Shown here piece by piece: positions 6,125-55,089 of a DNA stretch of 64,000 nt (positions are counted from its first letter, which is position 1; each line of letters opens with the position of its first letter). The notes under the pieces are model-generated. The model saw only the letters and a list, made by a program, of their open reading frames with translations, did no database searches and was not told where the DNA came from. A program made the translations under genes and the position numbers. This DNA comes from Candidatus Hadarchaeota archaeon (lineage in GTDB: Archaea; Hadarchaeota; Hadarchaeia; Hadarchaeales; JAGGTB01). The stretch covers positions 9,158 to 73,157 of the forward strand of contig CAZKND010000001.1 of NCBI GenBank assembly GCA_964554215.1, given 5' to 3'.

Positions 6125-6300
6125 AGACCTAATAACATAATTTGCTTAAAAAGTTTCCTTTTAATCACGCTAAAAATCGTAAAAATTTACCAAGAAAAAA
6201 TGAATTCCAAATACTTACATGCAAAAAGATTAGTTCAAATAATTTGTCTGCCCCGGCAAATTTGAAAATCGTATTAAACAATCATCGAGAAAATGAAAAC

Positions 6301-42967: not shown

Positions 42968-43396
42968 CTATTCGTCCTTTTTCATCTCTTCTTCTACTTC
43001 TTCAAGACCATCTGAAATTTCTGTATCAAGCTCAATCTCTTCATCTTCCGCAGCCTCACCTGTCATAGAATCTATCATCTCTTCAACCTTCTCACCACTG
43101 AACTCCTCGTTCGTCAAAATTCCTTCACTGGTTATATCAACTGCCGTAGACAATGCTTCGTCCATAGATTCAGCTTTAAGCATGGCCTTTTCCATCTCCT
43201 TCTGGGTTGAAGCTATATCTTCAATCTCCGCACCCTCACCGATGGATTCCGCAACATCTTGAGCGAATTCTACAAAATTTCCGGAAAGTTTTACTAATTC
43301 TCTCTGTATCTGAGCTTCTTCCATTACCATCAAAAGCTTCTTACCTCTCTGAATTCTTTCCTGAAGAGTGAGATACTTTTTCGCCTGTCTTTTCAA
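42968..43396 (-). CDS. Snf7/ESCRT-III-like coiled-coil protein, apparently lacking an N-terminal start (possible pseudogene or 5'-truncated gene)
   Basis: The only start codon is the TTG at 43396. The reading frame stays open a further 43 codons upstream (KQRTIRYRKAKSKINKYISNLKELQNKVFEQGKEAASLNDKKF) with ESCRT-III-like composition (GKEAA...L.KRQAKKY) up to a TAG at 43526-43528. The C-terminal half is acidic, as in ESCRT-III. Confidence 0.35.
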   Translation of the reverse strand: MKRQAKKYLTLQERIQRGKKLLMVMEEAQIQRELVKLSGNFVEFAQDVAESIGEGAEIEDIASTQKEMEKAMLKAESMDEALSTAVDITSEGILTNEEFSGEKVEEMIDSMTGEAAEDEEIELDTEISDGLEEVEEEMKKDE

Positions 43397-43695
43397 AAAT
43401 TTCTTATCATTCAGACTCGCGGCCTCTTTACCCTGTTCAAAAACCTTATTTTGAAGTTCTTTAAGATTAGAGATATACTTGTTAATCTTGCTTTTCGCTT
43501 TCCTATAACGGATTGTTCTCTGCTTCTATCGAGACCTGATTCCGTAAAATCTAAAATGCTTGTCCTACCCTACTTTTGAATGTGCAGGAAATACACCTCC
43601 TCTCGATCCACCCTCCGGAAGAGGTGTACTCCTTTTCAACCACATCACTTGCAATACAAACTCAGCAAAAAAAGGATTTCAGAAGAGCCAAAAAA

Positions 43696-43710
43696 ATTTA
43701 AATAATTTGT
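43696..43710 (+). promoter_or_regulatory. BRE/TATA-like promoter element TTTAAATAATTTGT preceded by an A-run
   Basis: Lies 57 nt upstream of the GTG of the 170-aa gene. The identical 14-mer occurs at 51721-51734, upstream of the 508-aa gene. Confidence 0.5.
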
Positions 43711-43766
43711 CATCCGAACAAGAGAACTAAGAAATAACCTCTAAAATAACAAAGGAGGTGAGATTT

Positions 43767-44270
43767 GTGGCAGCAGGATTTAATTCAATGAGAGCAATGG
43801 CGGAACTCATGAGTCAAATGGACAAAGATGAAACCGTTACGTTGATTGAGTCTTCCAGAGATATTCTTGACGCTCTTGCAGAAAACCCTGAAGTATTGAA
43901 AACATTCAGTTCTATCCTGAAAGAATTAGCAGAAGATGAAGAAATCGCTAAAGGTTTATCCAATTTAGTTTCCTTAGCCGGACCATCTATCGATGCTCTG
44001 AACAACACAATGACTCCCGAAGCAGTAGACATGATGCACGAACTAGCACAGAACGATGATGTGAAGGAAGGCATAGGTTCTTTCCTATCAATTATAGACC
44101 CCGAAATGTTAGGGGCTCTACTACCAGTGATCGGATCAATTATAGGAGCAGTCCTATCTGAAATATCCAAAAATGAAGAAGCAAAAGAACACTTGATTGG
44201 TTTAATCTCTCATAGTGGTCCATTGGCTAAGAAAGCCAACACCGCTTTTATGGGTGAATCAGTCGACTAA
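43767..44270 (+). CDS. all-alpha helical-repeat protein (DUF1641-like?), copy A
   Basis: GTG start 7 nt after the AAGGAGGTG RBS. Differs from copy B (53366-53869) at 27 of about 167 aligned residues (roughly 84% identity), by my manual count. Confidence 0.6.
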   Translation: MAAGFNSMRAMAELMSQMDKDETVTLIESSRDILDALAENPEVLKTFSSILKELAEDEEIAKGLSNLVSLAGPSIDALNNTMTPEAVDMMHELAQNDDVKEGIGSFLSIIDPEMLGALLPVIGSIIGAVLSEISKNEEAKEHLIGLISHSGPLAKKANTAFMGESVD

Positions 44271-44302
44271 TGATTTCTAAAGACTTTTTAGAGGAATAAA
44301 AA

Positions 44303-44398
44303 ATGCCAGTGAAAAAGAAAGCTCTGGTCACAGGTGCGTGTGACTTTGTAGGTCCGCACATTATAGATTTTTTAGTAGCGCAGTATTCACGTAGGTAA
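44303..44398 (+). pseudogene. 5' remnant (31 codons) of an NAD-dependent epimerase/dehydratase gene
   Basis: MPVKKKALVTGACDFVGPHIIDFLV matches the N-terminus of the intact paralog at 53902 (MSGKKKALVTGACGFVGSHIIDLLV). Homology then breaks at about 44379 and a stop follows. Confidence 0.6.
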
Positions 44399-44420
44399 AA
44401 ATCCCTTTGTCTTTTTTGGT

Positions 44421-44457
44421 AAAATCTTCCCCGAGTTTTGAGGGATGGGGAGATTTT
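44421..44457. repeat. inverted repeat AAAATCTTCCCC / GGGGAGATTTT with a 14-nt spacer, just inside the insertion boundary
   Basis: Read directly from the sequence. The ATG of ORF 44445 lies in the spacer, immediately before the right arm (44447-44457). Confidence 0.5.
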
Positions 44458-44831
44458 GCCTATATCTTTTTAGATTCCCATTCGTGCCCGTGTTAGTTAG
44501 AGATTCGGTGTACGGAAAATTTTTGGAGGAGGATATTTACCTCTACCAGAAATTATTGAAAGTTTTCAGACTAGGACTGGAATCGACAAAGGTCGAGACT
44601 TCCCACTCCCAAATACTTGAAGCACTTTCAAAAAACATTTCAACCGTTCTTGAACCCGTGAGCTCTCGGACGCTCACCCCACATCACGAATTAATCGAAG
44701 CATACTCTATAAAGCTCACAAACGAAGTAAAAACATTCTACGAAACCGAAATCAAATCGCACGGAAATTCAGCCCGTACAAGCATGCAAAAAGCATTAGT
44801 CATCGTGCTCGAAGAAGGCGAAAAAGAATGA
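44445..44831 (+). CDS. hypothetical protein (128 aa) inside the higher-GC insertion
   Basis: ORF only. No recognisable motif. Confidence 0.35.
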   Translation: MGRFCLYLFRFPFVPVLVRDSVYGKFLEEDIYLYQKLLKVFRLGLESTKVETSHSQILEALSKNISTVLEPVSSRTLTPHHELIEAYSIKLTNEVKTFYETEIKSHGNSARTSMQKALVIVLEEGEKE

Positions 44832-44936
44832 GTTAATTTTGTAACAATGCCGAATCAAGGGAAGAATTTATTAAGATTTGTTAAATCATAAATATTTGTT
44901 GGAGCATAAAGAGACGAAAAATAAGAGTGGTTCAAG

Positions 44937-45098
44937 ATGAAATGTTGGATATGTCGAGAAGAGAAGGAAGACCTTAAGGAGATAGAAGCCATGGGGTCGG
45001 AGCATCACGTGTGTTCTGACTGCCTCTGGAGGGTATTAGACGAGCACGGTAAGCCAAAGTACGAGACAAAGCCTAAGTGGGAGAATATCTATGAGTAA
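44937..45098 (+). CDS. small zinc-ribbon protein (53 aa; CWIC ... CSDC); not in the supplied ORF track
   Basis: My own translation: MKCWICREEKEDLKEIEAMGSEHHVCSDCLWRVLDEHGKPKYETKPKWENIYE. Overlaps the start of the downstream epimerase gene by 8 nt. Confidence 0.35.
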   Translation: MKCWICREEKEDLKEIEAMGSEHHVCSDCLWRVLDEHGKPKYETKPKWENIYE

Positions 45099-46284
45099 TT
45101 CTGATAAAGTCCTAGTCATGGGAGCGTGTGGTAACGTCGGCTCGAAGTTAGTGAGGATTCTGCTGGATAACGGATACGATGTAAGGGCTAGCGACCTGGA
45201 GGATGCGAGTAAGGAGCTTTTAGGGGACCTTGATGTGGAGTTCGTTCCCGGGGACATCACGAAACCAGAAACTTTACAAGACGTTGTCGAGGACGTGGAC
45301 GCGGTTTTTAACACGGTATCATTCCTGGCCTACTCGAACCTTATCTCTTACGACCAGATGTACAAGGTCAATGTAGAGGGGGAAAGGAACTTACTTGAGG
45401 CCACCATGGAAAACAATGACGATCTTAAGGCCTTCATACACTGGGCTTCGGGAGAAACTTACGGTCTGGGCGGTTTGTTTGAAGAGCGGTTCCTCCATGA
45501 AAATGGAGAAAGTAGAGAGGATCATCCTCAAACTGCATCTGATGCTCCCTATCCGAAGACGAAATTGCTAGGTGAGCGAGAGTGTTGGCAGTACTACGAG
45601 GAGGAGGATTTACCATTGATAGTAATGCGACCATCCATGATTTATGGACCGGAGCCATCATTCGAGGACAGAAGGTGGCTCAGATACTCCAAGTATTTCA
45701 TGGTAATGCGGGATTTAGTAGAGATGATGGGAGGATGGCCAGGGCTTCTGAACTTTAAAAACCCGCTTGTCCACGCGGAGGATTCAGCCAGAGCGGCAGC
45801 ATTCCTTTACGAGAACAAAGAGGATGCCATAGGTGAGGCATTCAATATCGTGGACGACCAAAATTACACCATGGAAGACATCGTTCGTTTCATGTTTGAC
45901 TATTTCGGCTGGGATATTCAAGAAAATCCTTCTGCACATCTCAAGCCCCTGTTGAAGGGACTTCCACTGCCAAAACCCACCATCAGGGTGTTCAAGAAGG
46001 CGTACAGGGCCTGGATGGACGAAGTAAGGGAACAGGGACCAATCTGGTGGGACTCGAACTACCAGGATCACTATCTTGAAGAGATGCTGAGCATGGAGAA
46101 TTACTGTGAGGACTTCAAATATTCCAACAGAAAGATAAAGGATCTCGGCTTTGAATTCAAGTATCCGGACGTGAGGGACGCCTTACCAGACATATTCGAG
46201 AACTGGAAGGAAAAAGACCTGGTGCCAGAGAGCTCCGGATTCAAGCACTTCTTTCTCAAGGCATTCCTGCTGGATGAACGCTAA
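45091..46284 (+). CDS. NAD-dependent epimerase/dehydratase (extended SDR) family protein, divergent homolog of 53902-55089
   Basis: Rossmann motif VMGACGNVGSKL and catalytic YxxxK (APYPKTK). Noticeably higher GC than its surroundings. Roughly 35-40% identity to the other copy by eye. Confidence 0.8.
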   Translation: MSNSDKVLVMGACGNVGSKLVRILLDNGYDVRASDLEDASKELLGDLDVEFVPGDITKPETLQDVVEDVDAVFNTVSFLAYSNLISYDQMYKVNVEGERNLLEATMENNDDLKAFIHWASGETYGLGGLFEERFLHENGESREDHPQTASDAPYPKTKLLGERECWQYYEEEDLPLIVMRPSMIYGPEPSFEDRRWLRYSKYFMVMRDLVEMMGGWPGLLNFKNPLVHAEDSARAAAFLYENKEDAIGEAFNIVDDQNYTMEDIVRFMFDYFGWDIQENPSAHLKPLLKGLPLPKPTIRVFKKAYRAWMDEVREQGPIWWDSNYQDHYLEEMLSMENYCEDFKYSNRKIKDLGFEFKYPDVRDALPDIFENWKEKDLVPESSGFKHFFLKAFLLDER

Positions 46285-46430
46285 ACAGGGTATTAATTTA
46301 CCCCGGAAATAGGAGAGCAGGAAGCAGTAACTCAGTCTGTACCGTTGGAAGTACCTGGGCAACCCGAGTTATTCTATTAATCAATGGGGTCAAAATAACA
46401 ACTTCATAAAAAGTAAAAATCTTATATTTT

Positions 46431-51720: not shown

Positions 51721-51734
51721 TTTAAATAATTTGT
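51721..51734 (+). promoter_or_regulatory. BRE/TATA-like element TTTAAATAATTTGT upstream of the 508-aa gene
   Basis: 39 nt upstream of the ATG at 51773. A GGTGA RBS lies in between. Same 14-mer as at 43696. Confidence 0.5.
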
Positions 51735-51772
51735 GAGTGCATGGATAGAATTGCAAAGAAGTGGTGAAGTAA

Positions 51773-53299
51773 ATGCCAAAATTCGAGCTTTCGGAAATCG
51801 ATAAGGAAGGATTGGAAAAAGGTGCAGACAGGGTACAACCAGAATGGTGGCAGATAGTTGAAGTCTCCGGAGCTCTTGAAAAGGGAGAAGTTCCATCAGC
51901 TGAAGAAAGATTCGGAGGAGTTGCATTAGCTCCCATTGAACTTGACCATGGTATTCTTCCAAACTTGATGAAAGATTTTCTACCTCAAATCTTCATAGAC
52001 AACCCAACGATGACAACTCTAATTACAGACGAAGAAGGCGACCATATCATATGGGCAGGTGTAGAGCATGCCGAAGGCGGAGTTTACAAATGGGTTGAAA
52101 GAGTTGACCCTAAAGGCGAATGGGCAGAACCAGTGAATGAAAAATTATCAGAGGGAGATTATGAAGGTGCCTACGAAGAAACCAAAAAGATGGTTGAAGA
52201 AGAATTTGGAGTTGATTTAGGACTAATAAAAATAGCTAAACCTCAATTCTTTATAGAATTAGAAAAAACCTTTGAAGCTGCAGAAGAAGGGGAAGACTTA
52301 ATCGGATGGATTCCTCAAGTAATGGATTTCGGAGTCACTATTTTTGAAGAAGATTATATCAATTTTTATCCTGAACCCTATTTTTACCAATTTTTAAACG
52401 AAGTACTTGAACCCATGATAAAGGAATTAGATGGAGACGAGCTTGAACCTATTCTCAGGAAGTTCATCGACGAACCTCCACTCGACATAATCATACCACT
52501 CAAGAGCAGAGGGAAATCCTCCGCACTCAGAATAAAGCAAGATAGCGATAACATAGTGATAACTTCAGTCGATTTAGAAGTCAATGAGGAATTGTATTCA
52601 GACGATGTGAAAAAACTAGCTCAAAATTACAGGGACAAGTTCCCCGAAGCGGACTTAGTTCTTTCCCTAAACGTCAATGAAGACTTAAAGAATCTACTAA
52701 GTCAGCTAATGACAGACATTCCGATGAGTGAAGAAACATACGCTAAAATAGGGACCTATGTGGGCAATCTGTTAAACTCACTTGGAGAAGATGTTTGGAT
52801 TGAAATGAATGATAACTGGCTTAATCTAAACAACATCTTGGAGTGGGCGGAAGAATTGTTGGATTATGACATCAGAGAGCTTAATCTACCTCTAGATATG
52901 GTGATGGTGGGAATGGAAAAAACGCTATCCCAACATCCTATGGGAATATTCGTCACGGACGAAAACAGAGAATTGGTAACATCAATAGTAGCAGACTTCA
53001 CGGAAGATGTCCCTAAACTTGAAACAGTAAACAAAAGTGAACTAGAGGAAATATTTAAAATAGAAGGTTCAAATGCAGTGAGCGAAGCTGTTTCCGAACT
53101 TCCTGAGGAATATGGAACTGTCCACCCATGTATCGAGGTTAAGATAGACGAGATAGTACCTATAGTCGCCGAACTAAAGAAATCAATGAAAGAGCCTAGA
53201 AGATCTCCGCTATACCTCATGAGAATTCTAACTTACCTAGGGGACATTTTAGAAAAAGGGATAAACTTCTCAGATTCTCCTTATCAGTTAACAGAATAA
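51773..53299 (+). CDS. hypothetical acidic protein (508 aa), no recognisable domain
   Basis: Long ORF with normal codon usage, its own promoter and RBS. Sits upstream of the 170-aa helical protein (copy B). Confidence 0.5.
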   Translation: MPKFELSEIDKEGLEKGADRVQPEWWQIVEVSGALEKGEVPSAEERFGGVALAPIELDHGILPNLMKDFLPQIFIDNPTMTTLITDEEGDHIIWAGVEHAEGGVYKWVERVDPKGEWAEPVNEKLSEGDYEGAYEETKKMVEEEFGVDLGLIKIAKPQFFIELEKTFEAAEEGEDLIGWIPQVMDFGVTIFEEDYINFYPEPYFYQFLNEVLEPMIKELDGDELEPILRKFIDEPPLDIIIPLKSRGKSSALRIKQDSDNIVITSVDLEVNEELYSDDVKKLAQNYRDKFPEADLVLSLNVNEDLKNLLSQLMTDIPMSEETYAKIGTYVGNLLNSLGEDVWIEMNDNWLNLNNILEWAEELLDYDIRELNLPLDMVMVGMEKTLSQHPMGIFVTDENRELVTSIVADFTEDVPKLETVNKSELEEIFKIEGSNAVSEAVSELPEEYGTVHPCIEVKIDEIVPIVAELKKSMKEPRRSPLYLMRILTYLGDILEKGINFSDSPYQLTE

Positions 53300-53365
53300 T
53301 TTGTATTACCCTCCTAGCAGGAGAACTAAGAAATAACTTCCAAAATAATAAAGGAGGTGAAATTT

Positions 53366-53869
53366 GTGGCAACAGGATTTAATTCAATGAGAGCAATGGC
53401 GGAACTTATGAGTCAAATGGACCAAGACGAAGCCGTTACGTTAATCGAATCTTCCAGAGATATTCTTGACGCTCTTGCAAACAACCCAGAAGTACTGAAA
53501 ACCTTCAGTTCAATTTTGAAAGAATTGTCGGAGGACGATGAAATAGCTAAAGGTTTCTCCAATTTAGTTGCCTTGGCCGGACCATCTATCAGTGCTCTGA
53601 ACAACGCAATGACTCCAGAAGTAGTAGACATGATGCACGAACTCGTGCAAGACGATGATGTAAAGGAAGGTATAGGTTCATTCCTATCGATCATAGACCC
53701 AGAAGTATTGGGAACTCTACTACCAGTGATCGGATCGGTTGTAGGAGCAATTCTATCTGACATATCTGAAGATGAAGAAGCAAAAGAACATCTAATGGCT
53801 TTAATCTCTCATAGTGGTGCCTTGGCAGAGAAGGCCAACACCGCTCTTATGGGTGAACCAGTCGACTAA
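53366..53869 (+). CDS. all-alpha helical-repeat protein (DUF1641-like?), copy B
   Basis: GTG start 7 nt after the AAGGAGGTG RBS. Paralog of 43767-44270. Confidence 0.6.
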   Translation: MATGFNSMRAMAELMSQMDQDEAVTLIESSRDILDALANNPEVLKTFSSILKELSEDDEIAKGFSNLVALAGPSISALNNAMTPEVVDMMHELVQDDDVKEGIGSFLSIIDPEVLGTLLPVIGSVVGAILSDISEDEEAKEHLMALISHSGALAEKANTALMGEPVD

Positions 53870-53901
53870 TGATTTCTAAAGACTTTTTAGAGGAATAAAA
53901 A

Positions 53902-55089
53902 ATGTCAGGAAAAAAGAAAGCTCTGGTCACAGGTGCGTGTGGCTTCGTAGGCTCGCATATTATTGACCTTTTAGTAGAGGACGATGACTACGAAGATGTG
54001 ATTGCAACAGATCTCGAGTCAGCTGATACTAGTCATCTGGAAGACAAAGACGTAGACTTCAGACCGGCTGACTTTACAAAACCGGAGACCATCGATGAGA
54101 TACTGGATGAAGACATAGACGTTATTTTCAACCCAGCTGCGGCATTTAATTACGAGATGCCCATGCAGGTGATGAAGAAAATAAACGTTGAAGGAGGACG
54201 AAACTTTGCAGAAGCTGTGGTTGAAAACGTCGAGGACCTAGATATATTCGTCCATGTTAGCACCGGAGAAATCTATGGATACAACATGTTTGGAAAGAGC
54301 GAAGAACTAGATGAAGACGGTCATTTCAAGGAAGTAGAATCTAAAACACCTGGTGAAGCTCCCTATGCAAAAACCAAAAAACTACAAGAAGAAGAGATTT
54401 GGGAACTACACGAGGAAGAAGATCTACCAGTTGTAGACATGAGACTTGGAACTGTTTATGGACCAGGATTGTTCTTTGCAAGACTGGTGAATCTTTTCAT
54501 TGACCTTGCGTCTCTCGGAAGATTCCCAGACAATATCAACTTTAGATGGCCGCTGGTCCATGTCGAAGATGTAGCTTCAGCAGCTAAATTCCTCGCAGAA
54601 AAAGGAGACGAAGTTATAGGCGAGGCCTATAATATAGTGGACGAACAGGAATACATCCTATCGGACATGGTTTACAAAGTAGCTGACTACATGGACATGG
54701 AAGTAGAGAACCTACCTAATATTCCTTCTATGGGTGAACTTTGGAAATTAATTCCAAAGGGAGAACTGGTAGAAGATATTCTAGACGAAGCTTACCCAGA
54801 ATACCAAAACCAAGTGGAAGACCGATATGACGATGATGTCTGGATGAAATACAACCATGCAGGACCATACGCAAAACTCTTGCTAAATAACATGCCTGAA
54901 TGGGACGATGATTTCACATATTCCAACAAAAGTTTGAAAGAAATTGGTTGGGAACCGAAGTACGAAAGTTTCCTCGATGCTATTCCAGAGATTATAGAAT
55001 GGAGTAAAGAAAACGGTTATCTCGTAGAGAATCCAGGTCTAAAGCATCTAGTAACAAAGGCTCTAATCTCCGACCCTTCAGAAGCCTAA
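53902..55089 (+). CDS. NAD-dependent epimerase/dehydratase (extended SDR) family protein, intact copy
   Basis: LVTGACGFVGSHI Rossmann motif and catalytic APYAKTK. 395 aa with a C-terminal extension. Confidence 0.8.
   Translation: MSGKKKALVTGACGFVGSHIIDLLVEDDDYEDVIATDLESADTSHLEDKDVDFRPADFTKPETIDEILDEDIDVIFNPAAAFNYEMPMQVMKKINVEGGRNFAEAVVENVEDLDIFVHVSTGEIYGYNMFGKSEELDEDGHFKEVESKTPGEAPYAKTKKLQEEEIWELHEEEDLPVVDMRLGTVYGPGLFFARLVNLFIDLASLGRFPDNINFRWPLVHVEDVASAAKFLAEKGDEVIGEAYNIVDEQEYILSDMVYKVADYMDMEVENLPNIPSMGELWKLIPKGELVEDILDEAYPEYQNQVEDRYDDDVWMKYNHAGPYAKLLLNNMPEWDDDFTYSNKSLKEIGWEPKYESFLDAIPEIIEWSKENGYLVENPGLKHLVTKALISDPSEA

Follow-up and report, generated by a model that had tools for sequence, protein, structure and literature searches.

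Background

Deletion and template switching between short direct repeats, by slipped-strand, illegitimate or microhomology-mediated recombination, are familiar from bacterial deletion spectra. In archaea, the core promoter consists of BRE and TATA box, with a TTTAWATA consensus some 26 nt before the start of transcription. Herein we describe an archaeal locus that can be compared with both, and with partial segmental duplications as well. It lies in a stretch of 64,000 nt from Candidatus Hadarchaeota archaeon, an uncultured halophile (hereafter the window, from whose first letter all positions are counted), where a three-gene operon, copy B, is accompanied by a shorter paralog without the first gene, copy A.

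Like a deletion between short repeats, copy A misses a 1.57-kb segment, copy B of the window has a repeat at each end of this segment and one copy is left at the junction, and the left flank runs correctly into the repeat. Unlike such a deletion, its right flank is displaced by 5 nt, ATTAC being missing, the downstream repeat is matched at 9 of 10 positions in two relatives and absent in a third, and the event is ancient and fixed, so that no parental/product pair occurs within one population. With partial segmental duplications it shares about 0.68 kb of duplicated sequence, placed at a distance of 9.6 kb in the same orientation, one intact gene under relaxed purifying selection next to a truncated and decaying neighbour, and paralogs that fall into an A clade and a B clade when the lineages are compared; it differs from a simple segmental duplication in that no simple breakpoint forms its 5' end, which appears to be fused to a duplicate of the core promoter of the operon itself. 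As for archaeal promoters, the element TTTAAATA follows a purine-rich A-run, elements of this type are located 39-70 nt upstream of start codons, and they are conserved across orthologs with near-saturated synonymous sites, whereas the promoter activity here is read from sequence and conservation alone. Copy A is an ordinary evolutionary scar, namely an old partial operon duplication with promoter fusion, and represents no new mechanism or system. It would illustrate, as a natural case, how a gene further down an operon gains its own promoter via a partial duplication skipping the first gene, and for annotation it has the value that copy A is a real paralog with a pseudogene stub and no assembly error.

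Operon structure and ancestral gene order

The operon of copy B spans 51721-55089 (Table 1). Its first product, the 508-aa protein, has no Pfam or NCBIfam match, and searches with both the 508-aa and the 170-aa protein against the PDB, Pfam and NCBIfam sequences gave nothing significant; a borderline match to Phage_TAC_15 in these searches (22.5 bits vs a cut-off of 22) was disregarded. In fact, the 508-aa protein has 4 close homologs only among 5.8 billion proteins, and its family comprises 35 representative clusters among 1.84 billion proteins. The AlphaFold models are of low confidence, with pLDDT values of 50 for the 170-aa protein, which is predicted to be all-helical, and 42 for the 508-aa protein. 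Moreover both proteins are strongly acidic, which fits the hypersaline source of one relative (L002), the sediment of a saltern pond of 33% salinity (PMC6048260). Exact-protein look-ups with the 170-aa and 508-aa open reading frames at their listed lengths returned no record, and an exact record was found for the 167-aa form starting from GTG 53366. As the relatives have an ATG at the position of GTG 43767 / 53366, the start giving 167 codons is the more likely one for the gene in both copies, although we keep the name 170-aa gene below.

Table 1. Coordinates of the features of copy A and copy B in the window, and the sequences at their junctions
Feature	Position	Strand	Remark
Copy A core promoter-like element	43697-43710	+	TTTAAATAATTTGT, TATA-box consensus plus 6 nt; A-run in front
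Copy A leader of the 170-aa gene	43711-43766	+	Shine-Dalgarno AAAGGAGGTG; homologous to 53310-53365, gapless offset 9599
Copy A 170-aa paralog	43767-44270	+	167 codons from GTG 43767; ATG here in relatives
Copy A 5' stub of the epimerase gene	44303-44378	+	76 nt; pseudogene; right end of copy A
Copy B core promoter-like element	51721-51734	+	TTTAAATAATTTGT; 39 nt upstream of the ATG of the 508-aa gene
Copy B 508-aa gene	51773-53299	+	First gene of the operon
Downstream 10-mer	53295-53304	+	AATAATTTGT; across the TAA stop (53297-53299) of the 508-aa ORF 51773-53299
Pentanucleotide ATTAC	53305-53309	+	Between the downstream repeat and the onset of copy-A homology; missing in copy A
Copy B intercistronic leader of the 170-aa gene	53310-53365	+	Small CTCCT/AGGAG hairpin and Shine-Dalgarno
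Copy B 170-aa gene	53366-53869	+	167 codons from GTG 53366; predicted all-helical acidic protein
Copy B epimerase gene	53902-55089	+	395-aa extended SDR (NAD-dependent epimerase/dehydratase family); third gene of the operon
Junction, B-left			Left of break ...GAAAAAAGTTTAAATAATTTGT; right GAGTGC
Junction, A			Left of break ...CCAAAAAAATTTAAATAATTTGT; right CATCCGAACAAGAGAACTAAG
Junction, B-right			Left of break ...AACAGAATAATTTGTATTAC; right CCTCCTAGCAGGAGAACTAAG

The gene order 502 aa, 165 aa and 384-aa epimerase is found in a distant relative (L013/L015), in which the first protein shares 47% full-length identity with the 508-aa protein and the second 49% with the 170-aa protein. Since the same operon occurs at such a distance, the three-gene form is ancestral. 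More specifically, the ancestral unit is an operon composed of a promoter and the genes for a protein of about 505 aa, a helical protein of about 167 aa and an SDR epimerase, and copy A is supported as the derived form without the 508-aa gene, in agreement with the first-pass annotation of this locus. That annotation had also offered the opposite direction, an insertion of the 508-aa gene; in this reading a two-gene form of 170-aa gene and epimerase gene would have come first, and the 508-aa gene would have entered copy B between its repeats. The geometry of the junctions is symmetric, and by geometry alone a deletion and an insertion are indistinguishable; it is the gene order of the relative at 47-49% protein identity that contradicts the insertion, together with the truncation of copy A with its decaying epimerase stub, and the occurrence elsewhere of a 508-family domain fused to an epimerase domain. 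An insertion is therefore practically excluded. The fusion is seen in a remote homolog outside the window (P0042, 927 aa), where the SDR epimerase domain (about residues 93-357) precedes the 508-family domain (about 497-715), and such a fusion would be expected if the epimerase and the 508-aa protein work together as a functional module. Such an uncharacterised three-gene module (about 505 aa, about 167 aa and helical, SDR epimerase) is conserved in a small number of uncultured archaea, and a hypersaline pond is the source of at least one of these.

As a separate observation, a hairpin with the stem CTCCT-loop-AGGAG is located at 53311-53323, just past the stop codon of the 508-aa gene. Its stem is conserved in all B-type sequences, including L003 and L009, with a variable loop, and is destroyed in all copy-A sequences. 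A role of the leaders as a hairpin or anti-Shine-Dalgarno switch was dropped, as the folding energy is no better than that of shuffled sequences.

Junctions and extent of copy A

Copy A is not a full copy of the operon. From 43711 to 44378 it aligns to 53310-53977 of copy B, that is over 668 nt with about 88% identity and a constant offset of 9599, which takes in the 56-nt leader, the 170-aa gene and 76 nt at the 5' end of the epimerase gene, and the homology then ends abruptly at 44378. The proposal of the first-pass annotation that the sequence right of the copy-A repeat is homologous to the leader of the copy-B 170-aa gene thus holds at this offset, and the homology continues through the gene.

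The flanks at the 5' end are less regular than had been supposed. On the left, the sequence before the junction repeat of copy A continues the outer flank of the upstream copy-B repeat at 20 of 21 nt, and weakly further out, so the expected match to the copy-B promoter stands over 21 nt only. On the right, the sequence following the junction repeat does not directly continue the outer flank of the downstream repeat; solid homology resumes at A 43711 = B 53310, and the match expected there is obtained only if an extra loss of the 5 nt ATTAC is allowed. These 5 nt have the counterpart ATTAC or ATCAC in all B-type relatives and are therefore ancestral in copy B, and their absence from copy A shifts the two 10-mers by 5 nt relative to the flanking homology. 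When the sequences are read directly, no similarity is seen between the left flank of copy A and the 3' end of the 508-aa gene.

Repeats that would point to a mobile element, whether direct or inverted, are not present around copy A, and the window contains neither tRNA genes nor Rfam matches, so that a tRNA-linked integration is unsupported. Moreover the interval between the two copies is occupied by a second epimerase paralog (38% identical), CDC48, a desulfoferrodoxin-family protein, RNA 2'-phosphotransferase and the RFC large subunit; these are ordinary archaeal housekeeping genes, and the interval is accordingly not a mobile element.

Promoter-like elements

The 14-mer TTTAAATAATTTGT shared by the two copies fits the archaeal TATA-box consensus. 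Its core TTTAAATA begins at 43697, 70 nt before GTG 43767, in copy A and at 51721, 52 nt before ATG 51773, in copy B, and an A-run precedes it in both cases. On both strands of the 64 kb, TTTAAATAA occurs solely at the copy-A element and at 51721. The copy-A element is identical in copy A of two further lineages, namely L003, which belongs to the relative of about 80% nucleotide identity, and L020; the copy-B element is kept in L003 and in L008 (an 89% relative), and reads TTTAAATAATTTAG in L009 (70%).

Over AAAAAA[T/G]TTTAAATAATTTGT the left flanks of A and B are identical at 20 of 21 nt, and beyond this core there is an A-rich, gapped similarity which extends over about 47 nt only. For the pair in the window the upstream local score is 18, compared with 12 +/- 2.1 in dinucleotide shuffles, and it is reached by 37/2000 and 15/1000 shuffles; for the remaining A/B pairs that can be formed from the window, L003 and L008, 78-191 of 1000 shuffles reach the score, which is then not significant, and the comparison against L009 gives no signal. 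The p value of the upstream similarity thus ranges from about 0.015 to 0.19 by shuffling, depending on the lineage pair. When the 25 TATA-like sites of the window are compared with each other, A and B are mutually the best upstream match (18 vs at most 15). The left-flank homology is therefore robust for the 21-nt core promoter only, and a shared regulatory motif could mimic the homology of the two promoters. With respect to the earlier suggestion that the 170-aa gene came under the promoter of the 508-aa gene, a core promoter identical over 14 nt does stand directly in front of it; that this element descends from the copy-B promoter, and that it is an active promoter, we infer from the conservation and similarity just described.

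Such a mimicry leads to another reading of copy A, in which only 53310-53977 of copy B was copied and landed behind a pre-existing promoter, so that the 14-mer would be a shared motif, the 10-mer at the stop codon would be coincidental, and the 508-aa gene would never have been part of copy A. The weak upstream similarity, not significant for most lineage pairs, speaks for it, as does the recurrence of AAATAATTT-type motifs before other genes; moreover the 170-aa family has been duplicated alone at least one more time, as seen from a paralog behind an Fe-dependent alcohol dehydrogenase (Fe-ADH) gene, and an indel hot spot lies just left of the copy-A promoter. This is countered by the match of 20/21 nt including TTTAAATAATTTGT, which is unique to the two sites in 64 kb, and by the mutual best upstream match of A and B among the TATA-like sites. 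The remaining evidence comes from the short repeat itself.

Short repeat and origin of copy A

The 10-mer AATAATTTGT has 4 exact copies on the plus strand of the window, starting at 6238, 43701, 51725 and 53295, where 0.39 are expected from shuffles and none of 100 shuffles reaches 4. The upstream copy of the operon (51725-51734) lies inside the promoter-like 14-mer at 51721-51734, and copy A has one at its junction (43701-43710), likewise inside TTTAAATAATTTGT (43697-43710); it is single also in copy A of L003 and L020. Two of the positions given in the first-pass annotation were hence correct, the third had to be shifted from 53293-53302 to 53295-53304, and the copy at 6238-6247 had not been listed. 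A motif related to the promoter-like element, AAATAATTTGT, is located at 6238 in front of an unrelated Elp3-like gene.

In its context TTCAAATAATTTGT, the copy at 6238-6247 lies 56 nt upstream of the ATG of this Elp3-like radical-SAM gene. Motifs of the AAATAATTT type have 11 sites in the window, at least 4 of which lie a short distance before a start codon. The motif represented by AATAATTTGT and AAATAATTT is probably part of a common TATA-box variant of this genome.

The downstream repeat varies among the relatives. In the window and in L001, an NCBI assembly of about 96% identity, it is AATAATTTGT with 10 of 10 positions and the stop codon TAA, and a full match is found in these two only; in L008 (89%) and L003 (80%) it is AATGATTTGT, with 9 of 10 positions and the stop codon TGA; and in L009 (70%) the site reads GAGTAGAACCT, with no match to the 10-mer and the stop codon TAG. 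When this TAG is included in the reconstruction of the stop codon, a TAA ancestor and a TGA ancestor cost an equal number of changes. The 10-mers of the 40-nt promoter segment have 28 occurrences elsewhere in the 64 kb, from which the chance of a match within about 30 nt of the break is about 1%, as calculated for the window of today. A match so near the junction suggests that microhomology took part in the break, which we consider rather likely.

The two readings meet at the same junction. The displacement by 5 nt from the downstream repeat, together with the imperfection or absence of this repeat in the relatives, would be natural if copy A had landed behind a pre-existing promoter, whereas a 10-mer match beside the break would then have to be a coincidence of about 1%. 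All things considered, such a capture is the main alternative but rather unlikely. With moderate confidence we favour copy A as an old partial paralog of the operon, in which the core promoter was joined to the leader of the second gene, the first gene being left out, with a break at or near the short repeat. More specifically, in copy A (43697-44378) the A-run and TTTAAATAATTTGT would have been fused straight onto the leader of the 170-aa gene, the 508-aa gene being either deleted from a duplicate that was initially larger or skipped by a template switch in the course of copying. The break would have taken place at or beside AAT(A/G)ATTTGT, common to the promoter and to the stop-codon region of the first gene, and 5 further nt (ATTAC) would have been lost at the junction. 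The outcome would be a 170-aa paralog under its own TATA box, kept by selection with relaxed constraint, and an epimerase stub left to decay. That the short repeat guided the break is suggested by the one repeat left at the junction and by the low chance of such a match. The more specific claim of the first-pass annotation, that the 508-aa gene was lost by recombination between the two 10-bp repeats, can be kept as a plausible though unproven route: it agrees with the same two points, and is weakened by the register of the junction and by the state of the repeat in the relatives.

Age and selection

A relative of about 80% nucleotide identity (L002-L007) carries both copies in unchanged order, its copy A being bounded by identical junctions on the left and on the right, and both junctions are present as well in a third lineage, L020, which is 94% identical to copy A. 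As these junctions are identical in three lineages, one of them only about 80% identical, the event is old and fixed and is not a population variant. For the quartet of both copies in the window and in the relative, 21 sites support the pattern ((wA,rA),(wB,rB)) against 4 and 4 for the alternatives, the pattern being unrooted as to the lineage split, which indicates an old copy and no ongoing gene conversion. The first-pass annotation had proposed to look for the two arrangements as variants in a population; such variants were not found, and instead the two arrangements stand next to each other in all the assemblies covering the region. A full-length copy A, or a genome without copy A, was found in none of the assemblies examined, so the intermediate is hypothetical. 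A scan of a species-representative genome collection by protein patterns and by a conserved 26-mer gave no match, and a metagenome scan returned the already known relative only.

It might also be asked whether copy A is an artefact of assembly, in which strain variants were joined wrongly or into a chimeric contig. In the gene-position collection, the exact 167-aa protein of copy B is found only on a short contig of 1.8 kb from L001, about 96% identical to the window, and short contigs of low coverage (L008, L020) do occur. However, A and B are found together on single long contigs of 67.7, 169 and 32 kb in independent JGI and ENA assemblies, and they differ from each other by about 12% and have distinct selection regimes. 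The separate A and B clades across lineages argue in the same direction, against an artefact as well as a mixture of strains, and the probability of this reading is next to negligible.

The 170-aa open reading frame of copy A is intact in three lineages. Between the window and L003, the copy-A orthologs have a dS of 0.20 and a dN/dS of 0.36, which is significantly below 1 (Fisher p = 0.0014), compared with a dS of 0.51 and a dN/dS of 0.05 for the copy-B orthologs, and the nonsynonymous divergence of the copy-A gene exceeds that of copy B (p = 0.006). The copy-A gene is thus a paralog that has been retained, with its constraint relaxed. Decay is seen in the epimerase stub: in the window it has a G->D change in the GxxGxxG motif, which now reads GxxDxxG, and in L003 and L020 it has 1-nt deletions. 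These lesions are independent across the three lineages, and the end point of the stub is the same in all three.

Surroundings of copy A and further paralogs

Copy A lies in a block (43550-46300) which also holds a 53-aa zinc-ribbon open reading frame (44937-45098) and a 397-aa epimerase paralog (45091-46284). Compared with L003, the block is 90-98% identical, and the flanking genes are about 80% identical. In the same way, copy A and the 397-aa epimerase have a dS of 0.20-0.21 vs 0.85-1.9 for the flanking genes, and such a low dS relative to the neighbours points to a later exchange of the block between lineages; the 2.8-kb block thus looks like the product of a recent recombinational or lateral exchange.

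Within this block, the segment 44527-44845 is unalignable to L003, which has 131 unrelated nt there instead. The C-terminal part of an open reading frame at 44445-44831 matches the Pfam family DUF2080, 'putative transposon-encoded protein', with 22.5 bits at a cut-off of 21.5, and a small mobile element may have left this segment as a remnant beside the end of copy A. Immediately to the left of the copy-A promoter, the segment 42862-43667 holds a minus-strand acidic open reading frame of 142 aa (42968-43396). It is absent in L020, where 128 nt only lie between the DUF362 gene and copy A, and is mostly different in L003. This indel hot spot ends 33 nt before the 10-mer of copy A.

A different gene order is seen on the low-coverage contig L008 (positions 1-1785), where a PfkB-family kinase gene lies upstream of the C-terminal part of the RFC large subunit, unlike the order in the window; this reflects either a rearrangement or a chimeric contig.

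Besides the two copies, a third paralog of the 170-aa family is present in L010 (8001-8573), L011 and L012. It has 186-190 aa with a C-terminal extension, is about 65% identical, and is located directly behind the Fe-ADH gene; its likeness to the leaders of copies A and B is limited to a leader of about 50 nt. Two of the samples in which it occurs also hold the relative of the L003 type, and it occurs in one more sample. From such observations one might go further and regard the leader with the 170-aa gene as a repeatedly re-used cassette, the block 43550-46300 as a laterally exchanged island of halophilic archaea, and AATAATTTGT as a preferred site of breaking and rejoining, although we find this quite unlikely. 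Altogether the 170-aa family comprises at least three paralogs, placed behind the operon's own promoter, the 508-aa gene or the Fe-ADH gene.
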